64,000 bases of DNA from an uncultured virus (IMG/VR IMGVR_UViG_3300006137_000106) (taxonomy: Duplodnaviria; Heunggongvirae; Uroviricota; Caudoviricetes), in IMG/VR virus record IMGVR_UViG_3300006137_000106. One strand, given 5' to 3'. The position numbers and the translations under genes were made by a program. Shown one piece after another: positions 5,705-22,710 of the stretch (position 1 is its first letter; the number at the start of each line of letters is the position of its first letter). Under the pieces are notes generated by a model. The model did no database searches and was not told the origin of the DNA. It was given only the letters and a program-made list of their open reading frames with translations.

Positions 5705-5742
5705 TATGAAACGATTAGAAAAATAGAAAGTATTGGAATTGC

Positions 5743-7216: not shown

Positions 7217-8129
7217 ACGAAGAAACAGAGAAGCCTTTGCGGAGCACAGCTATTGGCAGTCTTACTCAGATATGATGGCTGCGCTGCTGCTAATATTTAT
7301 TTTGTTGATAGCAATTACGCTTGCCATATACAGACAGAAGACAAATGATCTCGATCAGACAAGACTAGAACTCAGCGCAGCTCAAAACGAGCTAGATGCA
7401 ACAATTGCGGATTTGGAATTTTCTAAAGCAGAGCTGGAGAAATCGAATGGAGATCTTGCATCTTCTCTAGCGGAATTAAAGCAGGCTTATGAACAGGCAG
7501 CCTTGACACAGGAAGAACTAAATAACGCATACTTAGAGATAGAAAATGCCAAACAGGAATTGACAACAACAAAACAGGAATTGCAAGATATTGTCGGCAT
7601 TCGCACAGATATTATTGGGGCGTTGCAGTCAGCTTTTAGCAATTCTACAATGAAAGTGGATGCACAGACAGGTTCTATTACATTTTCCTCAGATGTGCTT
7701 TTTCGTTATAATAGTTCCTCGCTGACAGCAGAAAGTAAGGAAACTCTAAAAACGATTATTCCAAGGTATTTGGATGTGCTGCTTCAAGATCAGTTCCGTG
7801 GTTATATTGCTGAGATTATTATTGAGGGACATACGGATACAGATGGAAGCTACCAGAGCAATATGGAGCTATCTTATGCGCGTGCGAATGCAGTGGCGGA
7901 CTTTTGCCTGAACAAAAACAACGGACTTAGCGAGGTGGAGATTGAGCAGTTGCAAAGGATTTTGACTGTCAATGGAAAGTCTTGGAGCAATCCGGTTTAT
8001 CACCAGGATAATTCGGGAAATTCCACGCAGGAGGTGGACATGTCTGCTTCCAGAAGAGTGGAGATTAAATTTCGGTTGAAAGAAGATGAAATGATTAAGA
8101 AAATTGCGGGGATTTTAGAGCAGGAATAA
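7206..8129 (+). CDS. MotB/OmpA-family protein with coiled-coil linker, ZorB-like
   Basis: WQSYSDMMAALLLIFIL TM helix with conserved Asp; IEGHTD, N.ELS..RA, SRRVEIK OmpA C-terminal motifs. Confidence 0.85.
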   Translation: MKNRRRNREAFAEHSYWQSYSDMMAALLLIFILLIAITLAIYRQKTNDLDQTRLELSAAQNELDATIADLEFSKAELEKSNGDLASSLAELKQAYEQAALTQEELNNAYLEIENAKQELTTTKQELQDIVGIRTDIIGALQSAFSNSTMKVDAQTGSITFSSDVLFRYNSSSLTAESKETLKTIIPRYLDVLLQDQFRGYIAEIIIEGHTDTDGSYQSNMELSYARANAVADFCLNKNNGLSEVEIEQLQRILTVNGKSWSNPVYHQDNSGNSTQEVDMSASRRVEIKFRLKEDEMIKKIAGILEQE

Positions 8130-8156
8130 TTTTTTAGTCCGTGTTTAACAGAGGCT

Positions 8157-8234
8157 GATTTCGGCGTAGGTAGGGATTTTGGTTACAAGCGCCAACACCT
8201 TGGTCACGATATGATGGGATTGATTGGCACGCCA
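8157..8234 (+). pseudogene. Isolated internal fragment of an M23-family metallopeptidase gene (DFGVGRDFGYKRQHLGHDMMGLIGTP)
   Basis: Manual translation; contains the HxxxD Zn motif followed by GTP as in M23 peptidases; no start, and a stop three codons after GTP. Confidence 0.8.
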
Positions 8235-8249
8235 ACAGAAATATAAAGT

Positions 8250-8284
8250 AGAACCTGAGTATCAAAAAATGATACTCAGGTTCT
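8250..8284. terminator. Perfect 15-bp inverted repeat overlapping the integrase stop codon
   Basis: AGAACCTGAGTATCA-AAAAA-TGATACTCAGGTTCT. Confidence 0.6.
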
Positions 8285-9812
8285 TGTCTTGTAATGTACA
8301 GGATTTAACAGTTTTTCGCACCAATTCGTTTTTTTCAGAATACGACAAATTATTAAGGTTGTCAACCAGATAACAGATATTTTCATAAACTTGTTTTCTG
8401 TTTATGGCAGCAGCCTTTTTATTTTCTAATGAAATCTCTGCGCGGGCAAGCGATGCCTTTAACGATGCCTGTTCTTTGTCCAATGCTTCCATCTGGGCAA
8501 TAATATATTTGGCAGCAGAGGAGGAAGCATTCTCAGAGAGTGCTTTTGCTAAGTTTGCAAGCTGTGTGTCCAAGGCATTCAATTCCATTTGCATGGATGT
8601 AATATCAGCGTCTTCAGTATTTGTAGTCTGTAATGTTATAAAGTCTGGATTGACCTTTATTTTCTTTAGTTCTTTTATAAATAATTCATCAATTGCATCA
8701 ACGCGTACATATTCAGAATCACAATATTCCCTGCCTTGTCGAACACGCTTCTCACAAAAATAATAAGAGAATTGAATCTTATTTTTCATATAAGTTCGAG
8801 TGGTCATTTTGCCGCCACACTGGCACCGCAGAACGCCTTTTAGAATACCAGTTGGATATTTCCCCGTTCGAAAGGTTTTATTGATTCCTAGGCGATTCTG
8901 TGTAGCGATAAAGACATTGGAAGGGACAACATAATTATGTATTCCTACAGCGATTGTCCAATTGGCGTGTTCCTGTGTGGTTTGTCGTTCCTTTCCGGTC
9001 TTAGTCTTGCCATAACGGATACATCCATGTGTGCCGTCGAATAGATCCTTAGAAACCATCTTACAGCCAAGTTCCTGAAAGTAGTAATACGCTTCAAGAG
9101 AGTTCTGGCAGTAGACAGGATTGGTTACAATGGCATAAATTTGTGACGCGTTTAGAAATGCTCCGTTTTGGCTTTTTATACCATGTTCCTTACAGTAGCG
9201 TTCCAATCCTGTGATGGTATAGCCGTTTAATAGAAGGTTATATAATAATTTTACACGCCAGATAGTTTCATCATCAATATCAAGAAAAGAATGCTCTTTA
9301 TCACCAAGCTTTTTCCGAATGGATTTCATGCCAGCCGGGCAGTTGCCGCCTGTCCATCTTCCTTGTTCTGCAAGGGCAAGCATATTGTCTGCGACACGTT
9401 CTGATGTATTTTCGCGTTCTAATTGGGCAAAGGCAGCCAATATATACATAACTGTTCTTCCAATTGGCGTGGAGGTGTCAAATGATTCCTTGACAGATAC
9501 GAAGGCAACTCCGTGTTCTTCAAAAGCTTCATACATTGTAGAGAACTCTCGTACATTTCGGCTAATGCGGTCAAGTTTGTATACCATAACAACATCAAGT
9601 TCATTTTTGCGAACATCACGCATCAGTTCTTGGAAGGAAGGGCGTTTTGTATTTTTGCCGCTAAAACCTTCATCTTTGTCATAAACTCTAAAGTCAAGCT
9701 CTTGACCTTTAAAGACAATAGCAGCGTATTCTTTGCAAAGCTCGACTTGGACCGTTACAGAATCACTGTTGTCCCTGTAGACGGATTTACGTGGATAGAT
9801 ACCAATTACCAT
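8262..9812 (-). CDS. Prophage large serine integrase
   Basis: YPRKS catalytic motif, DEGFSGKNTKRP, VYKLDRISR, AQLERE, CQCGG Zn ribbon; AGGAGG RBS. Confidence 0.95.
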   Translation of the reverse strand: MVIGIYPRKSVYRDNSDSVTVQVELCKEYAAIVFKGQELDFRVYDKDEGFSGKNTKRPSFQELMRDVRKNELDVVMVYKLDRISRNVREFSTMYEAFEEHGVAFVSVKESFDTSTPIGRTVMYILAAFAQLERENTSERVADNMLALAEQGRWTGGNCPAGMKSIRKKLGDKEHSFLDIDDETIWRVKLLYNLLLNGYTITGLERYCKEHGIKSQNGAFLNASQIYAIVTNPVYCQNSLEAYYYFQELGCKMVSKDLFDGTHGCIRYGKTKTGKERQTTQEHANWTIAVGIHNYVVPSNVFIATQNRLGINKTFRTGKYPTGILKGVLRCQCGGKMTTRTYMKNKIQFSYYFCEKRVRQGREYCDSEYVRVDAIDELFIKELKKIKVNPDFITLQTTNTEDADITSMQMELNALDTQLANLAKALSENASSSAAKYIIAQMEALDKEQASLKASLARAEISLENKKAAAINRKQVYENICYLVDNLNNLSYSEKNELVRKTVKSCTLQDKNLSIIF

Positions 9813-9876
9813 ATAGTACCTCCTGATAATAATTATGATTTTCGTGTATTAAAAATACACCGATTTCATTATTTGG

Positions 9877-9906
9877 TTGCAAGGATATATTAAAGTGTGC
9901 TACAAT
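9877..9906 (+). promoter_or_regulatory. Sigma-A-type promoter pointing away from the integrase gene
   Basis: TTGCAA-18-TACAAT with extended -10 TGn. Confidence 0.6.
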
Positions 9907-9911
9907 ATAAG

Positions 9912-9993
9912 CGTTGGTTGATATTGTAACTGGTACGCCAGTGATATATCTCTTATGCCGTTCGGTGCTGGTAACATCGAACGGCTTTGTTTG
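9912..9993 (+). ncRNA. Candidate ~80-nt small antisense RNA
   Basis: Bounded by the promoter above and an 11-bp hairpin GCCGTTCGGTG-CTGGTAA-CATCGAACGGC followed by TTTGTTTG; complementary to 22145-22290. Confidence 0.55.
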
Positions 9994-9994
9994 T

Positions 9995-10092
9995 ATATGC
10001 CCATTTTCAATGATTGATACTGCCTGTGAAGCTTGTTCTGGAATATCATTCAAGATAACCCTTAAGATAACATTTGTATCAATCAGTTGCAT
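9995..10092 (-). pseudogene. Truncated PIN-domain (VapC-like) toxin, about 31 N-terminal residues
   Basis: MQLIDTNVILRVILNDIPEQ PIN N-terminus; similarity ends at the repeat; overlaps the upstream antitoxin. Confidence 0.75.
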
Positions 10093-10324
10093 ATTTTTTT
10101 GTGATTGCACGTTTAAAAGCACCCTCTTCCTGTTCGATTAATGCTGGATTTGCATATTCACTAGCAATTCCAAGTATTGATTTTGCGGATTTTTTGTTTG
10201 CAGGTTCAATGCCCTTTTTTTCTAGTTCCTGTGAATTAATAAATTGAATAAACGTATAAACTGTTTCAATTTTCTGTTCTGGCATAGTTTGTAACAATCC
10301 GATTGCCTTTTCTAAAGTTGACAT
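10079..10324 (-). CDS. DUF2281-like antitoxin
   Basis: Size, LQTMPEQKIETVYTFIQFI pattern, KSILGIASEYAN; directly upstream of the PIN fragment. Confidence 0.6.
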   Translation of the reverse strand: MSTLEKAIGLLQTMPEQKIETVYTFIQFINSQELEKKGIEPANKKSAKSILGIASEYANPALIEQEEGAFKRAITKKYATD

Positions 10325-10446
10325 AGTAGTTATTCCTCCAATTCTATACCATAATATTTTTACGAGGTATTTTTTATTTCATTGTGTTTGACTTTATTAT
10401 ACCGTTCGGTGCTGGTAACATCGAACGGCTTTTCTTAATAAAGTTA

Positions 10447-10851
10447 TTATCCTAAATGAAGTTGTGTCTTTAAGGCGTCTTGTAGAACTTGGGAAAAGTT
10501 AATGTTTCGTTCAAGGGCAGCAGCATTGAGCCAAGCGGGTAGTGTAACAGTGCGATTTACAGAACGATTAATATTAGCTTGACGGATAGAGGGCATATAG
10601 ACATCAATTAGAACTGCCCGCTCGTTAGGTTGGACCTTTACATTAGCTAATGGTGTAGGGACAGGAATTTCTTCGCCGTCTTCTTCCAAACCATAAAGAA
10701 CACAACCAAGAAGTTCCCGCGCAGATAGGAGAGCATCATTATCATCTGTGCCACTAGTGGCACATTTTAAATCAGGAAAATCGACAGAAATTTCTTGTCC
10801 AGCTTCGTAAGAAAAAACGGCAGGATAAAAATAACGTTCTACTTTTTTCAT
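10447..10851 (-). CDS. hicB: HicB antitoxin
   Basis: YPAVF..V.FPDL..C.T.G; VNRTVTLPAWLN..NFSQVLQDAL. Confidence 0.92.
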   Translation of the reverse strand: MKKVERYFYPAVFSYEAGQEISVDFPDLKCATSGTDDNDALLSARELLGCVLYGLEEDGEEIPVPTPLANVKVQPNERAVLIDVYMPSIRQANINRSVNRTVTLPAWLNAAALERNINFSQVLQDALKTQLHLG

Positions 10852-10889
10852 AAAATAACCTCCTTAGATTAATATGTCAGGGGACAGGG

Positions 10890-11087
10890 CTAATTAAACT
10901 TTAGCCCTGATTGCTCTTCAATGCGTTTGAGTGTTTTGAGAGGGATATTTTTGTCTGGATGTTTTACTGTAGTGCGTCCCTTTTTAGTTGGATGTTTGAA
11001 TTGGTGGTGACTTCCTACTACATTCACCTCATACCAACCATCTGCTTTGAGTATTTGAATAACTTCTCTTGATGAATAATTTTTCAT
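10890..11087 (-). CDS. hicA: HicA mRNA interferase toxin
   Basis: REVIQILKADGW..GSHHQFKHPTKKGRTTVKHP. Confidence 0.92.
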   Translation of the reverse strand: MKNYSSREVIQILKADGWYEVNVVGSHHQFKHPTKKGRTTVKHPDKNIPLKTLKRIEEQSGLKFN

Positions 11088-11168
11088 TGGCATTTCCTCC
11101 TGACAATAGAATGATAACACATATAAAAATATTTGTCAATAAATTATGGCAAATATTTTTATATGTGT

Positions 11169-11585
11169 TCAATTAGTCTGTTTTACGTGCAAGTATTCCA
11201 TTAGTGCATTTTGAAATAACTTAGAGCAGTTCACGCCATCTTCATCAGCTTTAGAGGCAAGCCATGCTGGAAGAGAAAGTGTTTTCTTCACAAATCTGCT
11301 GTTAATACGTTCTCTTATGGGAGGCATAAATACCTCAATAAGCACAGGAACTTGATTTGGCTCAAGTGAGATAGCTGTGATGGGAGTTGGTGATGGAGGC
11401 GCTTCATTGTCTTGTTCCATACCCCAAATATGAAGTCCCATAGCTTCTTTTGCATTTTTTAATGCCATATCCGTATTACCAGTGTCTGCACAGGGACAGC
11501 ATCCGGGTAAATCGGGAAATTCAATACATATCCCATCTTCATCATAAGAAAATACGGCGACATAAGAATATCTGTCCTTTAACAT
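11169..11585 (-). CDS. hicB: HicB antitoxin (second copy)
   Basis: IEFPDLPGC, NAKEAMGLHI, VKKTLSLPAWL. Confidence 0.92.
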   Translation of the reverse strand: MLKDRYSYVAVFSYDEDGICIEFPDLPGCCPCADTGNTDMALKNAKEAMGLHIWGMEQDNEAPPSPTPITAISLEPNQVPVLIEVFMPPIRERINSRFVKKTLSLPAWLASKADEDGVNCSKLFQNALMEYLHVKQTN

Positions 11586-11631
11586 AAAAATCCTCCTAAT
11601 AATATATTAATGAGAAGCAAGTATGCAGGGA

Positions 11632-11829
11632 TTATGGAAATATAATCCCTGATTGTTTTGAAATACTTTTGAGAGTTCCTAAAGGTATGTCTTTTCTAGG
11701 GTGAGTTATTGTGACTTTTCCTTTTTTAGTAGGGTGTTTGTATTGATGATGATCTCCATCACAAGCCACTTCATACCAACCATTTTTTCTAAGTATTTCA
11801 ATTACTTCTCTTGATGAGTAGCCTTTCAT
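11632..11829 (-). CDS. hicA: HicA toxin (second copy)
   Basis: REVIEILRKNGW..GDHHQYKHPTKKGKVTITHP. Confidence 0.92.
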   Translation of the reverse strand: MKGYSSREVIEILRKNGWYEVACDGDHHQYKHPTKKGKVTITHPRKDIPLGTLKSISKQSGIIFP

Positions 11830-12130
11830 TTGTTAAGTCCTCCTTATAAGTACATTATAATACATAATTTATTGCGTGTCAATATCTGGAATAAATAATT
11901 TTTTATGTATTGTGAATTCTTATAAATACCTTTGTTATTTTAGTATTTTGTACTATACTGCAAATTGGAACTTATACATTGAAAGAATACTTTTTTGGAA
12001 CTTATTATTAAGAAGAACAGCTATCTCTCTTTAGGAACTGTAGAAAAATAATTGACACATCTTGACTTGTCTATTTCTTCGGTCTTGCAGACCCAGAAGC
12101 CTTGCCATAACCTGTTAAGTAAGATGCCTG

Positions 12131-13173
12131 TTATAATTTACAACATTTCTCAAAAGTGTCTTTTATTAGTTCCTGTATCGTATCAAGTTGCTCGACTTCA
12201 TCAAAATAATATTCACATTCATAATCAGTATTTTCAAATTTATGTAGTGTAAATAGATGTTGCTCTTTTCGGATGTAAACACGGCAAATCCATTTGGTTG
12301 AAAGCTCACCAAGCTGCATATAAGCATATCTTGAAGTCTTTTTATAAGTAATGTCTAAACTGGTGTTTAGGAGACCTTTAATATAATTCAAAACATTTGT
12401 TTCGTCAGTGTTCAGTATAGGCTCTGCTTTCTCGTCGGAGGGAACGGAAATAACAGGTTCGGGAGAAATAACAGTACTTAGGCGTTCTGAAATAACATCA
12501 TTAATGTATTCTTCAAAGGCTTTCTGAATGATTCCCTTAAATTTATCTATGACAGCTTGTGTTTTGGTACCGTTGTATATATTTTTGGTAAGGAGTGCTT
12601 TTACTAATTGGTCAGAAGGAGACTGAAACTGTTCCGCAATTACATTTTTTACCATTGTCATATATTTTAAGTTTGAAGCACTACTTAAAATGTTTTTGAC
12701 ATTGAATGCATCTTTTTGAAATTGTTTTAACTCCTCAGCAACATTTTTTTCAACTTTAGAAAGGTTGACGACAAGAAATGGTATTGTGTCCATTTTATTA
12801 TGCTCTTCCAAGTCTGAATAAAATTGATAAATAATGCCATTCGTTAGGATTCCAAACTTTGCTTTCGTGACGGAAAAGTATCGTATTAACTGACTCATAT
12901 GTTTTACAGATAGTTCCGTGTTAATAGGTTTGGCTTCGATTAGGATTAGAGGTTCATTATTAATCATAATGGCGTAATCAACCTGTTCTCCTTTCTTAAT
13001 ACCAACATCGGCAGTATATTCTGGAACAAATTCCAGTGGATTAAATACATCATAACCCAAAAGCTGGAAAAATGGCAGTATGATAGATGTTTTTGTCGCT
13101 TCTTCCGTCTGGATATTTCCTTTTAGGTGCTCAATTCTGTTGGAGAAGTTTTTAGTTTTTCTAAGAACTCCAT
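12131..13173 (-). CDS. HsdR N-terminal-like (type I restriction R-subunit N-domain) prophage nuclease; apparent 1-nt frameshift near the start
   Basis: EEATKTSIILPFFQLLGYDVFNP.EF.PEY.AD, VDYAI, LIEAK, GILTNG. The RBS-linked ATG at 13173 is out of frame with the body. Confidence 0.75.
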
Positions 13174-13457
13174 AGTGATTCCTCTTTTCTTTATTATTTA
13201 GTTTTTCCATATTTATATGATTATACGACAAAAGAGTACAAAAGAATAGTATTTCGTAACAAATTGATATTTTATTTGGCATTTTGCAAGAAACTATAAA
13301 AAAATGACGGTTCTTTTTTTGTAGGTATCTAACGAAATTGCGGGTTATTGCAAGATATGAAAGAATGAGTGTAGACTTTATACCTTTCTTTGTGCTAACA
13401 TTTTAATAACTTAAGGTGTAGGTAATATTTGTCGTTTAATACAAAGGAGCGTTGTGT

Positions 13458-13574
13458 ATGAGTGATAAAAGTGAAGTTATAAAACTCATTCAAAAACTAG
13501 ATGATGAGAGGGAAAAAAAGTTTATAATTCAAATCCTAATCATGATTAAAACCCATCTTTCGGGCAGGCATTAA
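13458..13574 (+). CDS. Small hypothetical protein (38 aa)
   Basis: AAAGGAG RBS; MSDKSEVIKLIQKLDDEREKKFIIQILIMIKTHLSGRH. Confidence 0.4.
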   Translation: MSDKSEVIKLIQKLDDEREKKFIIQILIMIKTHLSGRH

Positions 13575-13667
13575 GTCTGTCCAATCTTAAAATTATTTGG
13601 ATATATACTCATAAGCTTACCATATATATCTTATCCAAACTTTAGTTTTTAACATAACTTTAATTTT

Positions 13668-14759
13668 CTATTCAATCTTTTTTATGTCTCTGGTATCAGT
13701 ATATATATAATATTCTCTTACTACAGGTTTGGAACATAATTTTTTTGCATCATATTTTTCACCTTCTATGTAATTATGTTCAACAACATATAGTGCGTCA
13801 TGAACAGGATTGATGCTTGCGGTGATTTTTCTGGAATGGTTAACAATGACATGAAATTCTGAATCTTCTTTAAAATATTTTTTATAGTAAGAATAAATAT
13901 AGTCTTGAATGTTTACATCTTCTGATATTTCGGCAAGACGCCAGTTTCCGGTTGTATCATTTTGAACACTTTCATAAAATTTAAGATTCAAGTCAGATAT
14001 ATCTTTGTCGCTAATTCCACCGATTTCTTCATCAGTCTGATACTCTGATGTGAGTTCTGTTGGAGAATCATTAGGCAGTTCAGATAATTCTTTTTTGAAT
14101 AAAAAATCGCGTTGCTCATCGGTGTTTGATACTTCTATTTCAGATTCGCCAAGTATATGCGTTGTAAATGTGTCATATCGTGGTGATCCGTCAGAAGAAT
14201 AATTGCTCAACGAAACTTCTGAATCAGTTTCAGCATGGTAATAGCTTACTGTCATAATTATTTGAACATCATCAATTGGACTAAAAGCAAAATATACATA
14301 GTCCCCATTGGTATCTATAATTTTAATTTCGCCTAAATCTTCCTCAGTTGGTTCTGTAATTTCTATTTTATATTCAAGGGTACTTGCAAAACTTTTAACT
14401 CCTTCAAAAATAAATGATTTTTCTCGATTGGCGTAAGGAACATATATTTGTTCAAACAAATCTGTTGTTTCTATTGTTTGATATTTATTTTCTTCTAGTG
14501 ATAAAACAGTTTCTGATTCAGATTCAATAGTTTCTTCGGTCGCTATACTCGTTATTTCTTGGCTGGCAAATGTTTCTGTAATTGGAGTTTCTTCTTCAAG
14601 TTCAACTGTTTCTTTTTTTGTTGTTTCTGTACTGACTAATTCTGTGGATTCTGTTTCTTGTTTTGGTTCCTCTGTACGCGATTCATTTTTGGAATTGCAA
14701 GCCATTAATGATAAAGTTGTGATAGCTACGAGTAATACTAATAATGATTTCTTTTTCAT
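13668..14759 (-). CDS. Acidic lipoprotein in the lysogeny region (superinfection-exclusion candidate)
   Basis: MKKK-hydrophobic-LMAC lipobox; E/T-rich linker. Confidence 0.7.
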   Translation of the reverse strand: MKKKSLLVLLVAITTLSLMACNSKNESRTEEPKQETESTELVSTETTKKETVELEEETPITETFASQEITSIATEETIESESETVLSLEENKYQTIETTDLFEQIYVPYANREKSFIFEGVKSFASTLEYKIEITEPTEEDLGEIKIIDTNGDYVYFAFSPIDDVQIIMTVSYYHAETDSEVSLSNYSSDGSPRYDTFTTHILGESEIEVSNTDEQRDFLFKKELSELPNDSPTELTSEYQTDEEIGGISDKDISDLNLKFYESVQNDTTGNWRLAEISEDVNIQDYIYSYYKKYFKEDSEFHVIVNHSRKITASINPVHDALYVVEHNYIEGEKYDAKKLCSKPVVREYYIYTDTRDIKKIE

Positions 14760-14849
14760 TTGTTTTTACTCATCCTTTGTTCAAACTATTTTAAATTAAC
14801 ATATTATCACTATAACATCAAAATATTATTGTTAATTTTAAATATGCAA

Positions 14850-15239
14850 CTATGTATTCTTTATTTTATCTATCAAATTTTGTGCAACATTCTTTAATAT
14901 TTTTTTGGAGTTGTTATCTAAATTTTCGTATATAATGATTACTTCCTTTATCAGATCAGCCACAACATCATCAGTCGAATCCAAGAGCATTTGAGTACAC
15001 ATTGCAAGTTCTTCATCTTTTGATAATTTGATGAACATATCATCATCAGAACCGCCGTTTCGTAACCAATCCTCACTAACTCCAAATTCACGACAAATTA
15101 AAGACAAGACTGCATCTATTGGTTCGTTTCTACCGAGTTCGTATTGCGCGATGGTATTTCCCTTAACTCCGAGTCTCTCACCAAATTCACGTTGCGTTAA
15201 ATCTAACGTTTTTCTAAGCTTACGCAATCGTTCATTCAT
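14850..15239 (-). CDS. XRE-family HTH repressor (CI-like)
   Basis: LRKLRKTLDLTQREFGERLGVKGNTIAQYELGRNEP. Confidence 0.85.
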   Translation of the reverse strand: MNERLRKLRKTLDLTQREFGERLGVKGNTIAQYELGRNEPIDAVLSLICREFGVSEDWLRNGGSDDDMFIKLSKDEELAMCTQMLLDSTDDVVADLIKEVIIIYENLDNNSKKILKNVAQNLIDKIKNT

Positions 15240-15532
15240 TATAATTATCACCACCTTCATATTCAAGATAACAAATCTAAATAAAAAAGTCAACAGCAAG
15301 CTTCACAAAAACAAAAAATATCTCAAAATCCAAAATATATATTGACAAAAATGTTTTTGAGAATTAAAATATTCACATAAACAAAGATAAAATTAATAGG
15401 ATAGTAGACAAACATTTTATTTCACTTGCGAAATTGTGTACTCAGTGAATCAATGTTATTTAGTTAGCTGTGTGGACCGTTAAGTTAAGGGGTAAAATGT
15501 TACCCCAGTCTAGTTAAGAACCGGGGCAACAC

Positions 15533-15943
15533 TTAGACCTGCTGTCTTTGCTGATAGAGAGCGGTAAGGGAATCCTGAAGAACCTGTGAAAAATTAATGT
15601 GGTTTTTTTCAGCAAATGTGTTGAGCCATGCGGGAATGGTAAGATTTTTTCTTACAGCTTTTTCACCATATTTTTCAGCATAAGCATCCATATCCAGGAC
15701 AAGCATACTTACAAAGCCGCCCGGATCGGGGGTGATGCTTTCCAGAGGGCTTGCTTCCGGAGCTGGCTTTCCATCTTCCAGTTCATCAAGAACCCAGCCG
15801 GACGCTGCGTCTGTACCCATAAGAATGGCTTCAGCCAGTGTATTGCCTCCACTGACACAGCCGGGAAGATCAGGAACTACCACAGCATAAGCTCCATTTT
15901 TTTCTTCATCAGGATAGAAACAAGCAGGATAAGTTAATTTCAT
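15533..15943 (-). CDS. hicB: HicB antitoxin (third copy)
   Basis: YPACFY..VVVPDLPGCVSGG; VRKNLTIPAWLN. Confidence 0.92.
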   Translation of the reverse strand: MKLTYPACFYPDEEKNGAYAVVVPDLPGCVSGGNTLAEAILMGTDAASGWVLDELEDGKPAPEASPLESITPDPGGFVSMLVLDMDAYAEKYGEKAVRKNLTIPAWLNTFAEKNHINFSQVLQDSLTALYQQRQQV

Positions 15944-15977
15944 AAATACCTCCTTTATGGTGTGCAGTACTGGACTT

Positions 15978-16157
15978 TTATAGTCCGGCCTGCTTAAAAA
16001 TTTGTTTGACTATTTGTGGGGCTATATCTCCGGGGTGCTTGGGAATTGTAACTTTCCCCGGTTTTGATGGATGCGTGTATTGGCAATGAGAACCTTTTGT
16101 GCTTTTATATTTCCATCCATCTGCTAAAATAATTTTTTCTATCTCCCGGAATCTCAT
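15978..16157 (-). CDS. hicA: HicA toxin (third copy, 59 aa, below the ORF-track cutoff)
   Basis: Manual translation MRFREIEKIILADGWKYKSTKGSHCQYTHPSKPGKVTIPKHPGDIAPQIVKQIFKQAGL; AGGAGG RBS. Confidence 0.9.
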   Translation of the reverse strand: MRFREIEKIILADGWKYKSTKGSHCQYTHPSKPGKVTIPKHPGDIAPQIVKQIFKQAGL

Positions 16158-16469
16158 GCTGTAACCTCCTTACAATTATATTATACGCATTATGCGCATG
16201 CGTGTCAAGAGGAAACTTAAAAACTTTTGAAAATATAAGTATTTGCAAATTACCAAATATGAAAACCTGTATTTTGAGAAAAATTTACCAAAATCTAATT
16301 TTGATGTGGTGCTGGTAGGCAGATTATTTGTGAAAAGTAGGGATTTTTCCTTGAAAATCAAAGATTTTGAAAAAAATGCAGGTATGGAGATGTACCTGCA
16401 TCATTTTTCAGAATTATGCAGGGAGGACTTTTTGTGTCAGTTATGTACATTGTGTTATACCATTTTAGG

Positions 16470-16799
16470 CTACTTTGATTTTTCAACTAATGAATCAATC
16501 ATCTTTTTGATTAACTCACGATCTGAATCATTGAGCAAACTATATTGTTGGGCAAGCTGTCTCACTTCATCATTAATATCTAATTCGCTGGTTATATCTT
16601 CAAATCCAGTTTCAAGAAGAATATCGCCAGATGTATTTAGGATAGTTGCAAGTTGCTTTATTTTGGCAACATCCGGTTGGCGCTTTCCCGTTTCATAACC
16701 GCAATATGTGCTTTTGGTAATGCCCATAAGGTCAGCAACTTCTTGTTGAGTATAATTCATATTTAAACGTGCCTTTTTTAGTTGTTCAGAAAATCCCAT
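16470..16799 (-). CDS. XRE-family HTH repressor
   Basis: LKKARLNMNYTQQEVADLMGITKSTYCGYETGKRQP. Confidence 0.88.
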   Translation of the reverse strand: MGFSEQLKKARLNMNYTQQEVADLMGITKSTYCGYETGKRQPDVAKIKQLATILNTSGDILLETGFEDITSELDINDEVRQLAQQYSLLNDSDRELIKKMIDSLVEKSK

Positions 16800-16833
16800 A
16801 TCGTCACCTCATTTCAAAGCTATCCTAACATGA

Positions 16834-16920
16834 GGTTGGCGATATGTCAACAAATTTCAAAAATACTATTGACAAGTTGGCGATACGCGGATACAATCAA
16901 GATAAAGGTTGGCGATTCGT
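16834..16920. promoter_or_regulatory. Divergent promoter region with three GTTGGCGAT operator-like repeats
   Basis: GTTGGCGAT occurs three times; TTGACA-17-TACAAT on the + strand overlaps the middle copy. Confidence 0.7.
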
Positions 16921-16938
16921 TTACAAGGAGGTGAATAT

Positions 16939-17154
16939 ATGTACGCAAATTTATTAGGTCAGAAAGCATACAACCATCTGACAGATGAGGATATGGGAAA
17001 GATTATCGGCGTTAGTCGAAATTCTTATAGTCAGAAAATACGAAGCGGAAGATTTTGGCCGAGTGAGTGTCAAGCATTTTGCAGGTACTTTAATAAATCG
17101 TTTGAGTATTTATTTGCGACAGAGGAGGACACATCTTCCCATCAGACGGCATAA
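16939..17154 (+). CDS. Cro-like HTH protein
   Basis: Divergent from the repressor; LTDEDMGKIIGVSRNSYSQK; AGGAGG RBS. Confidence 0.8.
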   Translation: MYANLLGQKAYNHLTDEDMGKIIGVSRNSYSQKIRSGRFWPSECQAFCRYFNKSFEYLFATEEDTSSHQTA

Positions 17155-17689
17155 CTCGACAAGCCGTAGGAGTGTGGTATAAGGGGAAGAACAACTTTAG
17201 ACTGGCGAATATAAGTAGACGAAGTCAGCAAGAAAAAAATGAAAGGAAAAGTCATAATTATAAAACCCATTTCTGTTAAAAGTAAGGATTTTCTTCATAT
17301 CAAGACATTTTAAGATTGTCCCAATTCGTTTTATTGTGTCTGATGTATATTCAGTAGGTAATATGCAGAAACGTTAAAAGGACATGCCATGCAGCATGTC
17401 CAATTTCATCTGAACCTCAAAAACTACATTATAGTTAATAAGGTTATGTATTTTATAATAGTTTTGGTAGGAGTGTGGCAACTAAACCACTAGCGATGCA
17501 AGTACATACATCAACCACAAACTTCTTCTTTTCTTCTGGATAGTCGTCTGTAAAATAACCATCAGAAGTAAGAAGTCGGTGTCTTATGATGATACCTGCA
17601 AGTGTAGCATAACAACTTGTTACCATGAGCAAGCACCTCCTAATAATAAAAACAGCATGACCTTAGATCGTGCTGTTTTTATTATATCA

Positions 17690-18013
17690 CTATTTAGAAC
17701 TTTCAGTCAAGTACCTAATAAAAGATGAAACAGCATTGACCTGTTCATCACTCAAGATATCAATGGATTCTAAGACCTGCTTTTTAGCTAAAGATATACC
17801 TTGATTTGAAAATATTTCACCTTGACCATTTTCTAACCAGTCTTTGTTTACATTAAAGACATTTTCAATAAGTAGCAGTATCCGATCTGGTGGATTGACC
17901 TTACCTTGCATAATTCTGGAGAAGTAACCAGCATCAAGATTTATTTTCATAGCAAACTGGCGTTGAGAAATATTTAGCTCATTTAAAAGAATTTTTAATC
18001 TGTCACAAATCAT
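17690..18013 (-). CDS. XRE-family HTH regulator
   Basis: LNISQRQFAMKINLDAGYFSRIMQGKVNP..VNKDWLENGQGE. Confidence 0.85.
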   Translation of the reverse strand: MICDRLKILLNELNISQRQFAMKINLDAGYFSRIMQGKVNPPDRILLLIENVFNVNKDWLENGQGEIFSNQGISLAKKQVLESIDILSDEQVNAVSSFIRYLTESSK

Positions 18014-18146
18014 TATATTCACCTCTCTGGTGAAAGCATACCAAAAAATATTGCTTATGTCAATGAAAAGTATTGAAAAAACACTTGACAAATTGCTAAA
18101 AGCAATCTATAGTGTTGTTAAAAGCAATAGAAAGGAGGAAGAGCTG

Positions 18147-18296
18147 ATGACTAAAGCACAACAGACATTAAAAGAGGATATTGAGAAAATTAAGGATGAT
18201 ACCACTATTGAGAAAGTAAGAATTTTCATCATGGGAATATTAGCACAGCAGAATATTTCTGAAAATCAGCGTAACCCGACAAAGCAACCTGTATAA
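18147..18296 (+). CDS. Small protein divergent from the HTH gene (49 aa)
   Basis: AAGGAGG RBS; preceded by TTGACA and palindromic ATTGCTAAAAGCAAT sites. Confidence 0.6.
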   Translation: MTKAQQTLKEDIEKIKDDTTIEKVRIFIMGILAQQNISENQRNPTKQPV

Positions 18297-18495
18297 ACAT
18301 ACAGTGCAAGTTAATAAAAAGTCATTAGGTACAAATAAACGAATTGGGAGTTAAGATTTACGGAATTTGGGATAAATAGGAGCGTCTTATGAAGAGATAA
18401 CCTCTTACACTTAACAGGAAAATGGCTTAAGTAAATGACATTGCAAACTAATGACATTGGTTTGGGAAAGAGCAGTTATTGGAGGTAATGAGCTA

Positions 18496-18855
18496 ATGCC
18501 AGAGTTAACAGATAAGGATTTGCATTGTATTGCACGAATACTGCAATCACAACTATTAGGAGATAATGTGCAATGTATGTACTGTAAGTATGCTTTGGAA
18601 TGCCTTGAAGAATATGGACATACGCATAAAGCGTCGTTTATTAAAGTATGGAAAAAATTGGAAGAACTTACAGGCATAAATATTCATCTTTTCAATTCAA
18701 AAACCAAGCAAAAAGATATTCTTGCAGGTTCTTGGATTGAAAAGTGTCCGTCATTATTAGAACAGTTTACCAATATGTCTTTTGAAGAGCAACAGGACAG
18801 TCTTCGGAATTTGGACATTCAGCAGTATGCGGACAGTCGCTTGTTTGGAAATTAG
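18496..18855 (+). CDS. Hypothetical Cys-containing phage protein
   Basis: GGAGG RBS; CMYCKY..C motif. Confidence 0.65.
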   Translation: MPELTDKDLHCIARILQSQLLGDNVQCMYCKYALECLEEYGHTHKASFIKVWKKLEELTGINIHLFNSKTKQKDILAGSWIEKCPSLLEQFTNMSFEEQQDSLRNLDIQQYADSRLFGN

Positions 18856-18961
18856 CTAGAGGTAGTGTCCCAAGTGGTGCATATTGAACGTATGTAGCGT
18901 TAATAGTAGTTTCAGCTTCAAGATATGGGCAATATCCAGCAATAAGTTCTGTTTTTTGCAT
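18767..18961 (-). CDS. Small Cys-rich protein (GYCP...C...C...DCP), antisense cassette 1
   Basis: Own promoter TTGCAT-17-TATACT (19040-19012) and AGAAAGGA RBS; paralog at 20309-20494. Confidence 0.7.
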   Translation of the reverse strand: MQKTELIAGYCPYLEAETTINATYVQYAPLGTLPLANFQTSDCPHTAECPNSEDCPVALQKTYW

Positions 18962-19099
18962 GAAAAAAATGTTCCTTTCTATGTACTCGGCTTGGCAGAG
19001 CCTGTAAGTACAGTATAGGGAAGAATCTGGAAAAATGCAATGATAAACAAGCAGCAGAAAGGGCAGAGCCTTAACTTAATGGAGGCGGGGGCTAACTAA

Positions 19100-19279
19100 A
19101 TGACATTGCTAATGGTATCTATCCCCGCAGAAGTCAAAAGTGAGATTGATACTGTAAAACAGCGAGAGTTTTATGATAAACCATACGCTGAATTATACAG
19201 ACATATTATTCGCTTAGGGCTGACCAAAATGAGGGAAACGACGGACAACCAGCGTAACCCGACAAAGCAGATTGTATAA
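19100..19279 (+). CDS. Ribbon-helix-helix/Arc-like small protein (59 aa)
   Basis: Manual translation MTLLMVSIPAEVKSEIDTVKQREFYDKPYAELYRHIIRLGL...NQRNPTKQIV. Confidence 0.5.
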   Translation: MTLLMVSIPAEVKSEIDTVKQREFYDKPYAELYRHIIRLGLTKMRETTDNQRNPTKQIV

Positions 19280-19385
19280 ACATACACCAAAACGGAGGTT
19301 TTATACAGTGGGAACACTTTTTCGAAAAGGGAATAACTTAATGGAGGCGGGGGCAATTAAATGACATTGGGGAGGTGAAGGAAGA

Positions 19386-19568
19386 TTGTGGATATCAAGA
19401 AAGTATTATAATGCTTTGAATGAAAGAATTGCTGAACAAAAACAGCAGCTTAAGTATCAGCAATTCATGTTGGAGGTTTGTAAGAAAGTAGATATGTCAG
19501 CAAAAGAACTGATCAATGAATTTCAGTCTTCGGGAAATTCGTTATCATTCAGAGGTAAAATCCGGTAA
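19386..19568 (+). CDS. Hypothetical protein
   Basis: GGAGGTG/AGGA RBS; MWISRK N-terminus, coiled coil. Confidence 0.55.
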   Translation: MWISRKYYNALNERIAEQKQQLKYQQFMLEVCKKVDMSAKELINEFQSSGNSLSFRGKIR

Positions 19569-19828
19569 TTATTTAGCAGCCATTGATTGTAATTACAAAG
19601 CAGATCATTAAATGAGGTTATTGTTGATTTTAGGGATATTTTATGAGCAGCCACTATGATATCAAGTAGACGTTCTTCGGATGTTTGATTCATTTTTTCA
19701 ATATTGCGTGTGATATCAATTAAGGCAATTTTGAAGTTCTCGGAATCTTTTCTAATAAGATCTGGAATGCAAAAATTATTAATGTATTCCAAGAAGTTTT
19801 TAAAAAGTTCATCGTTTGTTTGCCTCAT
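19523..19828 (-). CDS. Hypothetical protein, antisense cassette 2
   Basis: Shares the TATACT-hairpin-AGAAAGG leader with cassettes 1 and 3. Confidence 0.65.
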   Translation of the reverse strand: MRQTNDELFKNFLEYINNFCIPDLIRKDSENFKIALIDITRNIEKMNQTSEERLLDIIVAAHKISLKSTITSFNDLLCNYNQWLLNNYRILPLNDNEFPED

Positions 19829-20069
19829 AATAAAGTACCTTTCTTATAAACTCGGTCATGGCAGTGACCTGTAAGAACAGTATAAAACAGGAAGGGTAAA
19901 AGAGTAAGATGCAATTGGAATACAAGAAATTAGCCGGATAAAGAATACATAGGACAGAGCCTTAACTTAACGAATAAGAAAACTAAATGATATTGATTTA
20001 GAAAAGAGTAGTTATTGGAGGTAATATTTCAACAGTCAGTTTATGACTTATTTAGATAGGGGTGAGAGT

Positions 20070-20312
20070 GTGGAGAAAAAACAGGATACAAAACATCTGG
20101 TTATTATAGAATCCAATGGAGTGAACAAATCAAAAATCACGATAGATGGAGTGGATCTGTCAGAGGCGATCACTGAAATACGCTTTGTACATAAAGGTGG
20201 GCAGCTTCCGGTAGTGGAGATTACGCTTACTCAATGCGATATAAGCATAAGCAATCCGCGAATCCCACAATTACCAGAAGTATTCAGAACTTTTTATAGA
20301 GCTGTCGATTAA
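20070..20312 (+). CDS. Hypothetical protein
   Basis: ORF with GGGGTGA RBS; KITIDGVDLS beta-rich pattern. Confidence 0.6.
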   Translation: MEKKQDTKHLVIIESNGVNKSKITIDGVDLSEAITEIRFVHKGGQLPVVEITLTQCDISISNPRIPQLPEVFRTFYRAVD

Positions 20313-20494
20313 GTCAGATTATTAAAGATTGGGCAGTCTGAACAGGCTTCTATGGTGTTGCTGTATTTGCAATAGTAAGTACATGGCGTTATGAAATCTG
20401 CCTGTAATGTGGAGGTTATGTTATAGGTGACAGTAATGGCAACATTCATGTCCTGCTTAGGGCAATAACCTGTAACGGATTCTTTTTTAGTCAT
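20309..20494 (-). CDS. Small Cys-rich protein (GYCP...C...C..DCP), antisense cassette 3
   Basis: TTGTTC-17-TATACT promoter, AGAAAGGAG RBS; paralog of 18767-18961. Confidence 0.7.
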   Translation of the reverse strand: MTKKESVTGYCPKQDMNVAITVTYNITSTLQADFITPCTYYCKYSNTIEACSDCPIFNNLT

Positions 20495-20765
20495 AGTTTT
20501 CTCCTTTCTTCTGTAGTCGGCTGCTGCAACAGCCTGTAAGACAGTATAAGGCAGGAACAGTAAAAGAACAAGATACAATAAAGTTAGTAGATAAGAAATT
20601 GGTTTATAATTGAATAGGAGGAATAAGAAGTGACAGAACAACAGTTAAGGCAGGCAGCAGATTTTTGGAATACAAAGCCATTGAAATCTGACAATATTGC
20701 GTTAGGAGGCATTATCCCGCTACCCAATGGCGAGAAAGGTATGGTTGTAGAGGAGGCGGAAAGAA

Positions 20766-21323
20766 TTGGTAGGAAGAGGGTTTCAATCAGAGAAAGTTAA
20801 TAAGGTTAGCAAATTAGTAAAAACAACACTCACTTCTATAGAAGTGGCACAGATGGTAGAAAAGCGCCATGCAGATTTGTTGAAAGATATTCGCAGATAT
20901 GTAGAGCAACTAGGAGAGGGAAAAATCTCCCCGTCCGATTTCTTTGCAGAATCAACTTACATTAATGAGCAAAACAAGGTGATGCCTTGTTTCATGGTCA
21001 CAAAGAAAGGCTGTGAATTTATTGCCCATAAGTTAACAGGTCAGAAAGGTACAGAATTTACAGCACGATACATCAATCGCTTTTATGAAATGGAAAGAGA
21101 GCTGATGGCTGTTAGTCCATCAGAAATTCCATTAGGCGAACTTGCAAGCTATCTAAAAATCATGGACAAGGTTGCAAATAGACAAAAACTTGCATCGTAC
21201 AAGATAGCGGCGAATTTTAAGAAGGTGTCAGAGCAGTTCGGAGTACAACTTACAGAGGATTTTGTAAGCATACCAGAATATAACCAAATGGATTTATTCA
21301 GTATGGGTGACAAGAAGGAATGA
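20766..21323 (+). CDS. Rha-family phage regulatory protein
   Basis: LTSIEVAQMVEKRHADLLKDIR, FF.ESTY, TKKGCEFIAHKLTGQKG..FTARYINRF. Confidence 0.9.
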   Translation: MVGRGFQSEKVNKVSKLVKTTLTSIEVAQMVEKRHADLLKDIRRYVEQLGEGKISPSDFFAESTYINEQNKVMPCFMVTKKGCEFIAHKLTGQKGTEFTARYINRFYEMERELMAVSPSEIPLGELASYLKIMDKVANRQKLASYKIAANFKKVSEQFGVQLTEDFVSIPEYNQMDLFSMGDKKE

Positions 21324-21364
21324 TGTAGATTTGGGACAAGCTTTAGGCAGAGAGGAAATTAAAA

Positions 21365-21562
21365 GTGAGAAAGAACTTGAAAGAAGCCCGCCAGAAAGCG
21401 GGCATGACACAGAAGCAGGTAGCAGAGTATTTAGGAATAAGTGAACATGCTTATCAGAAAATTGAGTATGGAAAACGTATTGGAAAAATTGAAAATTGGG
21501 ATAAACTCGAGGATTTATTTGGAATTTCTCAACGATATTTAAGGCAGATGCCTACCAACTAA
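21365..21562 (+). CDS. XRE HTH protein
   Basis: LKEARQKAGMTQKQVAEYLGISEHAYQKIEYG. Confidence 0.85.
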   Translation: MRKNLKEARQKAGMTQKQVAEYLGISEHAYQKIEYGKRIGKIENWDKLEDLFGISQRYLRQMPTN

Positions 21563-21745
21563 TTCATCAAGAGAGATGTCAAAAATATCAGCAATTTGAA
21601 TCAGTGTATCTAAATTTGGTTCTCTAGTATTAAGCTCATACTTTTGATATGCATTTGGGGTCATTTCTAGTTTAGCAGCCATTTGTTTTTGAGTTAGATT
21701 AGCTGAAAGGCGGTATTGTTTAAGAGTAGAAGAAAAATTATTCAT
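21539..21745 (-). CDS. XRE HTH protein, convergent with the previous gene
   Basis: LTQKQMAAKLEMTPNAYQKYELNTREP; GGAGG RBS. Confidence 0.85.
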   Translation of the reverse strand: MNNFSSTLKQYRLSANLTQKQMAAKLEMTPNAYQKYELNTREPNLDTLIQIADIFDISLDELVGRHLP

Positions 21746-21762
21746 AAAAACCTCCGTTAGTA

Positions 21763-21816
21763 TTGACATTCAAGTTGAATGTTAGTATAATACAATACAA
21801 CATTCAATTTGAATGC
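21763..21816 (+). promoter_or_regulatory. Consensus sigma-A promoter with two palindromic operators
   Basis: TTGACA-17-TATAAT (21763-21791); ACATTCAA-G-TTGAATGT (21766-21782) and ACATTCAA-T-TTGAATGC (21800-21816). Confidence 0.85.
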
Positions 21817-21876
21817 GTACAGAATAAATGTGCATAATAACATTTTATTTTACCACAAGTTAGGAGGTAAAGGCAA

Positions 21877-22149
21877 TTGGTAGCAGAAAAAGTTAAACAG
21901 CTAGAGCAGGAAAATATATCACTCAAGGCACAAGTGGAGGAGTTACAGAACCTATGTGGAACCAATGCAAGTGTTCCAATGAACTGTGAATACTGCAAAA
22001 ACTTTATCCAGCATTACATTAAAACTGGTATGCAGTATTCTCCGGTATATTCAGGGCATTGTGTCGCAGGGAAGCAGACGAAATCGAGGAGAACAGATGA
22101 TACCTGCAAAGCTTTTGTAAGAAAGGCATATGGCAAGAATCATATTTAA
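21877..22149 (+). CDS. Hypothetical Cys-rich protein
   Basis: AGGAGG RBS; CEYCKNF..GHC..C. Confidence 0.65.
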   Translation: MVAEKVKQLEQENISLKAQVEELQNLCGTNASVPMNCEYCKNFIQHYIKTGMQYSPVYSGHCVAGKQTKSRRTDDTCKAFVRKAYGKNHI

Positions 22150-22290
22150 TTTAGGTGTTACCAGCACCTATGGCGTATAAGTTAGAGTATTAACCAACAA
22201 AGTTTAATTTAGGTGTTACCAGCACCTATGGGCGTACAAGTTACAATGTCAACCAACAAAGGAACTCATTACAATATCAGCCAACACTAA
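22145..22290 (+). repeat. Two ~58-bp tandem units plus a partial third
   Basis: TTTAATTTAGGTGTTACCAGCACCTATGG..AACCAACAAAG at 22145-22202 and 22203-22261; TTACAATATCAGCCAAC at 22269-22285. Confidence 0.9.
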
Positions 22291-22337
22291 TATTGTACAA
22301 CCGCTACCACATAAAGATAAAATGGAGGTGATATATC

Positions 22338-22499
22338 ATGGCAACGAAGACAAAGAAAACAAAAAAGAACGAGTATACATGTACAGTAGAGTTTACAGAG
22401 GGTAGTGAACAGCGTATTACTGAAGCGCTTGTTGAACTGTATTATAACAGACTCCGTGGAATTACCAAGACAGATGACAATGCAGAGAATTACGTATAA
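22338..22499 (+). CDS. Small basic protein (53 aa), function unknown
   Basis: GGAGGTG RBS; MATKTKKTKKNEYTCTVEFTEGSEQRITEALVELYYNRLRG. Confidence 0.65.
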   Translation: MATKTKKTKKNEYTCTVEFTEGSEQRITEALVELYYNRLRGITKTDDNAENYV

Positions 22500-22509
22500 G
22501 AGGGATTAG

Positions 22510-22710
22510 TCGTGCCCTCTGTGCGGCACATATGCTGGTGTGTGTCGCAGCCTCTTTTCTAAAAATTTCATATGCAGCGGACACAGGATAAAATATGCCT
22601 GTGTGCCGCGCAGGGGGCATGTGGACAAGCTGTGTGCTTTGTACGTGGTGCATATGCATCACATTCCCAGTAGATTAGCGGGCGTGCAGGGATAAAAGCC
22701 TGTGCGCCAA
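22510..22710 (+). ncRNA. Candidate structured non-coding RNA
   Basis: GC-rich intergenic block with several helices whose mismatches are G-U wobbles on the + strand. Confidence 0.45.

Follow-up and report, generated by a model that had tools for sequence, protein, structure and literature searches.

A predicted integrase-adjacent small RNA with bipartite complementarity to a tandemly repeated early leader of the same prophage

The 64,000-nt stretch of DNA analysed here over its whole length (the window; IMG/VR record IMGVR_UViG_3300006137_000106, from an uncultured virus of the Caudoviricetes) holds a prophage that, beside its integrase gene (int), very probably carries a genuine small-RNA (sRNA) gene, at 9913-9995 on the + strand, that belongs to a new, large, integrase-associated family. 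The family is uncatalogued: it is absent from Rfam 15. Two segments of the predicted RNA are complementary to tandem repeats in an early operon of the same prophage, where they lie between two small genes that we refer to as orf90 and orf53. This complementarity in two parts does exist, exceeds chance and has the polarity that pairing needs. The best-supported reading, which we hold at about even odds, is that the sRNA represses, or is titrated by, the orf90-orf53 early leader.

The sRNA promoter (9877-9906, +) was recovered by a promoter scan and consists of a -35 element TTGCAA, an 18-nt spacer, a TG and a -10 element TACAAT. With the start placed from the -10 element, the predicted transcript (9913-9995, +) is about 80 nt long (81-86). 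Its predicted fold has an energy of -28.1 kcal/mol (z = -3.29), which one of 200 shuffled sequences equalled, and comprises a single-stranded 5' GUUGGUU, a hairpin that we call P2 (9920-9950, with a UACG loop), a linker and a terminator. The terminator hairpin (9957-9985, +), which is the conserved motif of the family, has an 11-bp stem and a 7-nt loop CUGGUAA (9968-9974) and is followed by TTTGTTTG. A terminator scan returned two candidates, at 9957-9985 and 10402-10428, where 0.5 were expected. A first-pass annotation of the window had framed a + strand RNA by this promoter and this terminator; both were found again by the scans, with the stem corrected to 11 bp and the loop to 7 nt. Two blocks of the RNA are complementary to the distal repeats. 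Block A (9913-9939, +) is made of the 5' tail and the 5' half of P2. Block B (GGTGCTGGTAACA, 9964-9976, +), described earlier as spanning the hairpin loop, does cover the loop and reaches further, into the top of both stem arms.

The pairing partners proposed earlier for block A were all recovered: its reverse complement matches 22231-22257 at 25/27 positions and 22172-22198 at 22/27, and its first 17 nt match 22269-22285 at 16/17. With at most three mismatches allowed, block A is matched at two places in the window, whereas 100 shuffles give an expectation of 0.00. The two exact mirror copies of block B, at 22156-22168 and 22214-22226 on the - strand, are likewise present, and beside the original at 9964-9976 (+) there is an additional direct copy at 10408-10420 (+) that the first-pass annotation had overlooked. 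With up to two mismatches allowed, block B has five matches in the window, while 0.94 are expected and none of 100 shuffles reaches five.

The distal copies are arranged as two tandem repeats of 58-59 nt and a partial third, or 2.5 units. Unit 1 (22145-22202, +) contains a predicted hairpin AGGUG-UUACCAG-CACCU carrying the complement of block B (B', 22156-22168), followed by that of block A (A', 22172-22198), in which three of the five differences from perfect complementarity are G.U pairs. Unit 2 (22203-22261, +) has B' at 22214-22226 and A' at 22231-22257, with one G.U pair and one mismatch, and the partial unit 3 (22262-22297, +) has a hairpin UACAAUAU/AUAUUGUA and a segment, 22269-22285, complementary to sRNA nucleotides 1-17 with a single G.U difference. 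In units 1 and 2 the small hairpin exposes UUACCAG, the exact complement of the sRNA loop, and A' starts 3-4 nt later. The units do not contain the middle of the sRNA (the 3' arm of P2, the linker and the lower terminator stem): what they retain are the segments predicted to be exposed. Eight positions are not Watson-Crick pairs and five of these are G.U; all five transition differences give G.U and none gives A.C, an outcome of about 1 in 32 if they are independent. Scanned for duplexes on both strands, the window has its best trans sites in the distal units, at -65 to -69 against a mean of -30.7 (standard deviation 7.1, n = 2556 windows), and the next unrelated site scores -53.7. All distal copies are oriented such that the + strand mRNA is complementary to the sRNA, so the polarity claimed for pairing with a rightward mRNA is correct.

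The terminator hairpin of the sRNA recurs in many other genomes and phages. When 401 genomes of the host's family were searched at the DNA level, eight other genomes had it, most with a TATAAT-type promoter 70-80 nt upstream; a degenerate hairpin pattern was found on 113 IMG/VR contigs and on at least 120 genome contigs, with the complete hairpin in 61 among the matches listed; and a covariance model (R1) gave hits in 18 out of a further 151 genomes sampled from that family. The named records with family members are mostly Lachnospiraceae (gut Firmicutes). An extended -10 promoter (TTGCCA/TTGCAA, TGnTAYAAT) lies 65-110 nt upstream of the hairpin in 67 unique relatives out of 91 hits, and the predicted family RNA ends 60-110 nt on, in the conserved terminator hairpin. 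The window sRNA has a promoter of this type (TTGCAA-18-TG-c-TACAAT). Model R1 hits it at 9912-9989 with 48.9 bits (E 1.1e-8), a score that is partly by construction, because the window sequence is in the seed alignment. The window copy fits the model (12-bp stem, tandem U.G, YUGGUAR loop, U-tract), but the two U.G pairs are U-A in it.

The conservation is that of an RNA. Across 97 distinct R1 hits, in an alignment fitted to the model and hence favouring structure, the stem is 98.5% paired and compensatory double changes occur in 8 of 12 pairs, and none of 500 shuffles reaches any of these measures. The closing G-C pair is invariant and the lower stem covaries. The loop reads YUGGUAR in 93 of the 97 hits (UUGGUAG in 60, CUGGUAA in 33), even where the whole stem sequence is different. 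These features are not those of a plain intrinsic terminator with no RNA-specific role. As block B is this family-wide conserved loop and hairpin top, it is not a phage-specific seed. The loop has the YUNR form, presumably the U-turn seen in antisense recognition loops and in tRNA anticodon loops. Two adjacent U.G stem pairs are present in 56 of 61 aligned members; on the minus strand they would be A.C mismatches, which identifies the + strand as the functional one. The + strand small-RNA gene that the first-pass annotation had postulated is thus borne out by its promoter, by stem covariation, by strand-specific U.G pairs and by a position kept in about 100 relatives.

No known RNA family accounts for it. 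A search of the whole window against Rfam 15 gave no family at gathering score and, at E<=10, no + strand match covering 9913-9993; at E<=1 Rfam gave nothing at the hairpin in nine homologous loci. GenBank phage records contained no family member at E<=1, a family-member query giving only two chance matches (E 0.8), and BLAST queries with 9800-10450 and 22100-22520 had no match among GenBank phages. Identity as a tRNA or tmRNA was considered and dropped, and a known ribozyme or Rfam motif and a similarity to signal recognition particle RNA were dropped as no Rfam match was found.

Some further members and lookalikes deserve mention. A third family member is found on another contig of the genome nearest to the window's host (L383, G001:C51:21615-21690; 60 bits), with a compensatory stem change CAGTG/CACTG; it presumably marks a second mobile element with its own guard RNA. 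The same hairpin (CCGTTCGGTGTTGGTAGCACCGGGCGG) also occurs in GC-rich records that have no AT-rich promoter (L117:2347-2376, L157:969-998, L325, two copies in L275, and L351). These are Nocardiopsis and Komagataeibacter records as well as IMG/VR contigs; the L117 copy lies beside a tyrosine integrase, and two Komagataeibacter copies differ by compensatory stem changes. In L046 / L101 (G061:C60) a 20-codon hydrophobic open reading frame (ORF), reminiscent of type I toxins, is convergent with the sRNA terminator, a single occurrence that may be due to chance.

The position of the gene is conserved as well. In 76 of 84 distinct cases the first ORF diverging from the RNA encodes a recombinase (of the tyrosine type in 54 and of the serine type in 22; 63 hairpins too near a contig end and five with no ORF do not enter this count). 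On the other side, 81 out of 90 distinct cases have a convergent ORF as the closest downstream neighbour, which ends at a median distance of 35 nt from the hairpin (here 62 hairpins were dropped for short flanks and four as duplicates). Being convergent, this ORF, the last lysogeny gene, points towards int. In the window, int (8262-9812, -) encodes a large serine integrase of 516 aa (Resolvase 1e-33, Recombinase 3.1e-11, Zn_ribbon_recom 1.1e-11; phrog_95 integrase 2.2e-102); it starts at 9812 and the hairpin at 9957, and the convergent ORF is a truncated PIN-domain remnant. Between the divergent int and the convergent lysogeny gene, the sRNA gene therefore sits where lysogeny-module transcripts would run into int, and read-through transcripts into int would overlap the sRNA fully. 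The promoter scan found no convincing minus-strand promoter in 9813-9876. From this arrangement, a guard or insulator role for int would be the simplest family-level function. An RNA that is a host gene used as attachment site was ruled out: complete phage genomes with terminal repeats hold the element internally, so it is phage DNA and not a host attachment target.

We compared each sRNA region with its own flanks for 115 hairpins in viral loci, with 20 long viral records compared in full, and for the 61 genome-contig hairpins among the matches listed, 24 of which have at least 5 kb of interior sequence. Extended inverted copies occur in three lineages only. In addition to the window phage, which is exceptional in having two inverted copies of the loop motif and one extra direct copy, these are L153/L162/L173 and L124. 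In L153/L162/L173 a 35-40-nt mirror copy is located 3.2 kb off, inside the 3' end of a 93-aa excisionase-like ORF (HTH_17, sub-cutoff), and one position differs between lineages in both partners (TCGAT vs TCAAT). L124 has three mirror copies, one of them 5 nt upstream of a Shine-Dalgarno sequence and the other two 70-110 nt upstream of a 91-aa ORF, again excisionase-like with a sub-cutoff HTH_17 assignment. The 5' parts of the three lineages' sRNAs are mutually unrelated and each matches its own phage. Co-variation across phages, which had been named earlier as a check on the pairing, is thus seen, though in three lineages only, and the link to excision that the first-pass annotation had suggested finds an echo in the other two lineages, where the mirror copies lie in or beside these excisionase-like genes. 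The distal copies in L162 and in the window include sequence that is conserved in the sRNA family (GCAAGAGA and the hairpin top), which indicates that the sRNA gene was the source of the copies and the early region their recipient. Shorter matches were set aside as possible chance: inverted P2-hairpin matches of 16 and 14 nt inside an SbcC-like gene in L112 and L126, and a 14-nt loop match within a coding region in L305.

The distal units of the window belong to an operon with a consensus promoter, TTGACA-17-TATAAT (21763-21791, +; 12/12 match), from which orf90, the 2.5 units, orf53 and a terminator-like hairpin (22522-22549) follow in that order. orf90 (21877-22149, +) is Cys-rich and its stop codon lies inside unit 1; orf53 (22338-22499, +; 53 aa) is the first gene past the repeats. 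Neither has a match in the family, atlas or phage databases searched. Divergent from the promoter is a gene for a 76-aa XRE-type helix-turn-helix (HTH) repressor (21539-21769, -; HTH_3 2.9e-17; RstR-like 9.7e-18, sub-cutoff). Palindromes ACATTCAA.TTGAATG, one within the promoter spacer (21766-21782, 17 bp) and one at about +9 (21800-21815), are presumed to be operators. We note that this promoter and HTH module (21763-21815) looks like a second switch, a good way downstream of the first Cro-like gene. A gapped pattern returned 16 loci, of which only four are real, from two contigs of the same phage. A search for related loci with integrase, orf90 and orf53 queries found only the same phage, an orf90 homologue (L257) and one weak orf53 relative, and there is consequently no co-variation series within the window phage's own lineage.

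The explanation that we favour, with a probability of roughly 0.5, is that an antisense RNA shields int from read-through and, in the window phage, also pairs with the orf90-orf53 leader. From sequence, family conservation, strand, synteny and complementarity we infer transcription, pairing in vivo and the direction and outcome of regulation as follows. The strong sigma-A promoter of the family would fire away from int, and a lysogeny-module transcript reading into int would be antisense to the sRNA. The sRNA, perhaps aided by its hairpin as a terminator working in both directions, would hold int silent in the lysogen. In the window phage, the orf90-orf53 intergenic leader would have received inverted copies of two parts of the sRNA gene, namely the 5' tail together with the first half of P2 and, from the terminator hairpin, its top. 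These copies would then have been duplicated in tandem, in an operon presumably driven by the consensus promoter under its own HTH repressor. Because the early leader holds these inverted tandem copies, the sRNA could also pair in trans with the 2.5 sites of the early mRNA, by a loop-loop kissing interaction at UUACCAG and a 27-nt duplex. Such pairing would lower expression of orf53 and of downstream genes, through duplex-dependent cleavage or polarity, and would set a threshold for induction to exceed.

Several observations weigh against this explanation. Some concern the target: the orf53 ribosome-binding site is 40-190 nt downstream of the sites, which are not followed by a terminator; the 201-nt target leader, taken as one piece, shows no unusual degree of structure (z = -0.57); and the orf90 homologue in L257, 74% identical, is not followed by repeats, so that these are not integral to the orf90 leader. 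Unit 3 has homology that runs 12 nt upstream of the predicted sRNA start into the -10 box (9901-9929 against 22269-22297, 26/29); as this box is untranscribed, the homology shows an origin by DNA duplication and is dispensable for RNA pairing. Others concern the relatives. Eighteen of the 20 long viral records have no distal copy, which makes trans targeting by long complementarity an add-on and not the basic function of the family. A second copy of the loop motif, in either orientation, was found in none of 50 viral records (the motif occurs once in 44 and is absent in six), nor was an extended copy found for the 61 genome-contig hairpins among the matches listed. In the other two lineages only two of five transition differences are G.U, and the HTH_17 assignments of the excisionase-like ORFs are below the Pfam cutoff (21 bits against 27). 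As to expression, the 9.5-19.5 kb stretch is present in 11 runs recorded as RNA, of which the four examined (X1, X2, X8 and X10) provide contigs only, with no strand, ends or reliable levels; the contigs break at 9987 and 10403, at the two hairpin copies. X10 lacks cover of 9551-10067, to which we attach no weight.

A further feature is left unexplained by the favoured model: throughout the family the sRNA promoter (-40 to -1) and the transcribed body form an inverted repeat. A perfect repeat of at least 7 nt is present in 41 of 61 members, compared with 84 of 1220 shuffles (6.9%), as in L114:752-860, L118, L108 and, in the window, 9871-9955. It can form a hairpin of about 30 bp that includes the -35 and -10 elements; the + strand form is the more stable one in 39 members, the - strand form in 15. 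The repeat might serve as an operator, might contain another promoter whose spacer is too short, or might belong to a longer transcript. Read from sequence, a leftward promoter in the inverted arm would have spacers of only 12-14 nt, and the geometry does not fit a hairpin-type single-strand promoter.

The distal units could instead be the remains of an inverted DNA duplication of the int-proximal region that was tandemly amplified and has no regulatory role, the sRNA acting only locally or nothing but its promoter and terminator mattering. Such an origin accords with the -10 box in unit 3, which would not be expected in a transcript, with the many relatives that have no distal copy, with the repeat-free orf90 homologue of L257 and with the stray hairpin copy elsewhere in the window (10397-10432). 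We still judge it unlikely: in three independent lineages the copies are all inverted and all in the early rightward operon, in two of them beside excisionase-like genes; the units of the window retain just the two exposed parts of the RNA and have lost its middle; and 5/5 transitions preserve G.U pairing. Somewhat less probable again, to our mind, is a reversed arrow, in which the early leader with its 2.5 sites would act as a sponge that titrates an int-guarding RNA after induction and so releases int, and any other held targets, with early transcription. A sponge would make sense of several tandem sites per transcript behind a 12/12 consensus promoter, of their distance from any ribosome-binding site with no terminator after them, and of a family RNA that seems locally active at int in phages with no distal sites. 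It sits badly with the L124 site 5 nt from a Shine-Dalgarno sequence, which fits target repression better, and with the single site of L153/L162, which is within a coding region. Prophage transcripts that titrate an sRNA by base pairing are exemplified by the anti-sRNAs AgvB and AsxR of enterohaemorrhagic Escherichia coli; those titrate sRNAs of the host core genome, whereas here both partners would be in the same phage.

We considered two more alternatives. That the blocks are DNA sites for a protein (a repressor, an Xis or Int accessory factor, or a nut-like leader motif) acting at the int/sRNA promoter region and at the early leader appears improbable. Repeated, tandem and phage-specific blocks would suit a protein, and the family-wide inverted repeat over the promoter and early transcribed region could be its operator; but the blocks at the sRNA locus are downstream of the start site and outside the promoter, the distal copies share one orientation, which a DNA site does not need, the L153/L162 copy is inside a coding region, and block B is conserved as an RNA hairpin whose stem covaries and whose U.G pairs are specific to one strand. 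We give very little credence to the other alternative, that the blocks are a shared sense leader on the minus strand upstream of int and of a VapB-like gene and, on the + strand, of orf53, their inversion simply reflecting gene orientation. All four hairpin copies do lie upstream of a gene in the same relative orientation. However, the conserved U.G pairs (56/61) and further G.U variants would become A.C mismatches, the conserved promoter and U-tract are on the + strand, and the distal hairpins have different, shorter stems.

Among known systems, the sRNA comes closest to the c4 RNA of P1 and P7 (Rfam C4, RF01695) and the CI RNA of P4, to which the first-pass annotation had likened it. These too are small phage RNAs made in the lysogen, two-part and phage-specific in sequence, with exposed segments complementary to duplicated sites before early genes. 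The comparison stands for the two exposed segments and the duplicated sites upstream of an early gene; it fails as a statement of membership, as there is no Rfam match and the sRNA has its own promoter. The sRNA would work like c4/CI without belonging to that family. The c4/CI RNAs are processed from the leader of the operon that holds their targets, whereas the window sRNA has a promoter and terminator of its own and, as the sequence indicates, would act 12.2 kb away on targets behind a separate promoter (21763-21791). It also differs in being tied to an integrase gene, in its conserved anticodon-like terminator loop and in that most of its relatives have no trans sites. RNA-OUT of IS10/Tn10, which acts against the transposase mRNA, is similar in being a short stable hairpin RNA with a strong promoter and a U-turn recognition loop, located beside a recombinase gene and opposing its expression; the window sRNA, in contrast, is divergent from int, its family spans tyrosine and serine integrases, and it sits at the junction with a convergent lysogeny operon. 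A related parallel is the shielding of transposase or integrase genes against transcription from outside. The oop RNA of lambda and the sar RNA of P22 are likewise short, terminator-ended phage antisense RNAs acting on neighbouring regulatory genes, but they are purely cis-encoded, with no scaffold conserved across many phages and no link to int. The earlier statement that no such system was known to have been described for clostridial phages held up: there is none in Rfam 15, and literature searches, judged by their listings, brought up nothing on an integrase-adjacent sRNA family.

The surroundings of the sRNA gene may have been rearranged. The serine integrase gene is the left end of the prophage and adjoins host MotA/MotB-like genes, which end at 8129. 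Between the int start codon and the sRNA -35 element there is an A-rich palindrome, GTGTATT-AAA-AATACAC (9846-9862, strandless); by sequence reading, similar GTAT-A(5-6)-ATAC palindromes occupy the equivalent place in relatives. The ORF that crosses the sRNA gene (9787-10092, -) has only the first ~34 residues of a VapC-like PIN domain (PIN_3 residues 3-34, E 0.034, sub-cutoff) and is probably a truncated remnant. Its start is overlapped by an 81-aa ORF with weak, sub-cutoff similarity to VapB/DUF2281 (10079-10324, -; E 0.02-0.09). Beyond it lies a second direct copy of the terminator hairpin (10397-10432, +; 41.7 bits with R1), identical to 9953-9988 at 35 of 36 positions and with no family promoter upstream. 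The two 36-nt copies thus flank the VapB-like ORF and the PIN remnant (9953-10432), an arrangement that looks like a cassette insertion, or like a deletion between two terminator copies.

After int, these two ORFs begin a minus-strand lysogeny and accessory block that also holds three HicA/HicB pairs (10447-11829 and 15533-16157), an HSDR_N-type endonuclease (12131-13282) and three XRE-type HTH genes (14850-15299, 16470-16799 and 17690-18091); the immunity region may be composite. Rightward early genes run from about 16.9 kb: a Rha-type antirepressor, small HTH genes, DUF1351, an exonuclease, NinB, RusA, a DnaD-like gene and a primase-helicase, followed by structural genes. The Rha-type antirepressor (20766-21323) is upstream of the distal sites, not downstream. 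Direct repeats of 20-43 nt in the early region 18261-20579 (18261/19244 and 18450/19986, both 88%; 18423/19088/19349; 19877/20541) precede small ORFs; they may represent leaders present in several copies, or else gene starts that were duplicated. Contig C33 of genome G001 corresponds to window positions 1-16803 and then ends; the 22-kb region is absent from G001, owing to the contig break or to a different phage arm.

A wider, more tentative proposal is that the family is a widespread 'recombination lock' RNA, which would silence int in cis in the lysogen while its variable 5' module recruits targets, so that one RNA holds both halves of the excision machinery. The lock would be the integrase-divergent sRNA of Lachnospiraceae prophages, with its anticodon-loop-like hairpin, which is also found next to a tyrosine integrase in GC-rich records that may be actinobacterial. 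Targets would be recruited repeatedly through the copying of parts of the sRNA gene, in inverted orientation, into excisionase or directionality-factor genes or next to them, and the inverted repeat of promoter and body may belong to a further switch.

To our knowledge, hardly any work has addressed how temperate phages of the dominant gut Firmicutes control their integration and excision, and the usual assumption is that proteins do so (a repressor, and Xis or a recombination directionality factor). A conserved, easily recognised RNA next to tyrosine and serine integrases would add a new level of control over the stability of prophages in the gut microbiome, and would serve as a practical marker for the integrase end of prophages. 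The size of the family (113 viral contigs with the hairpin pattern and members in 18 of 151 sampled host-family genomes) merits an Rfam entry. The system in the window would exemplify how an sRNA can gain trans targets through inverted self-copying.

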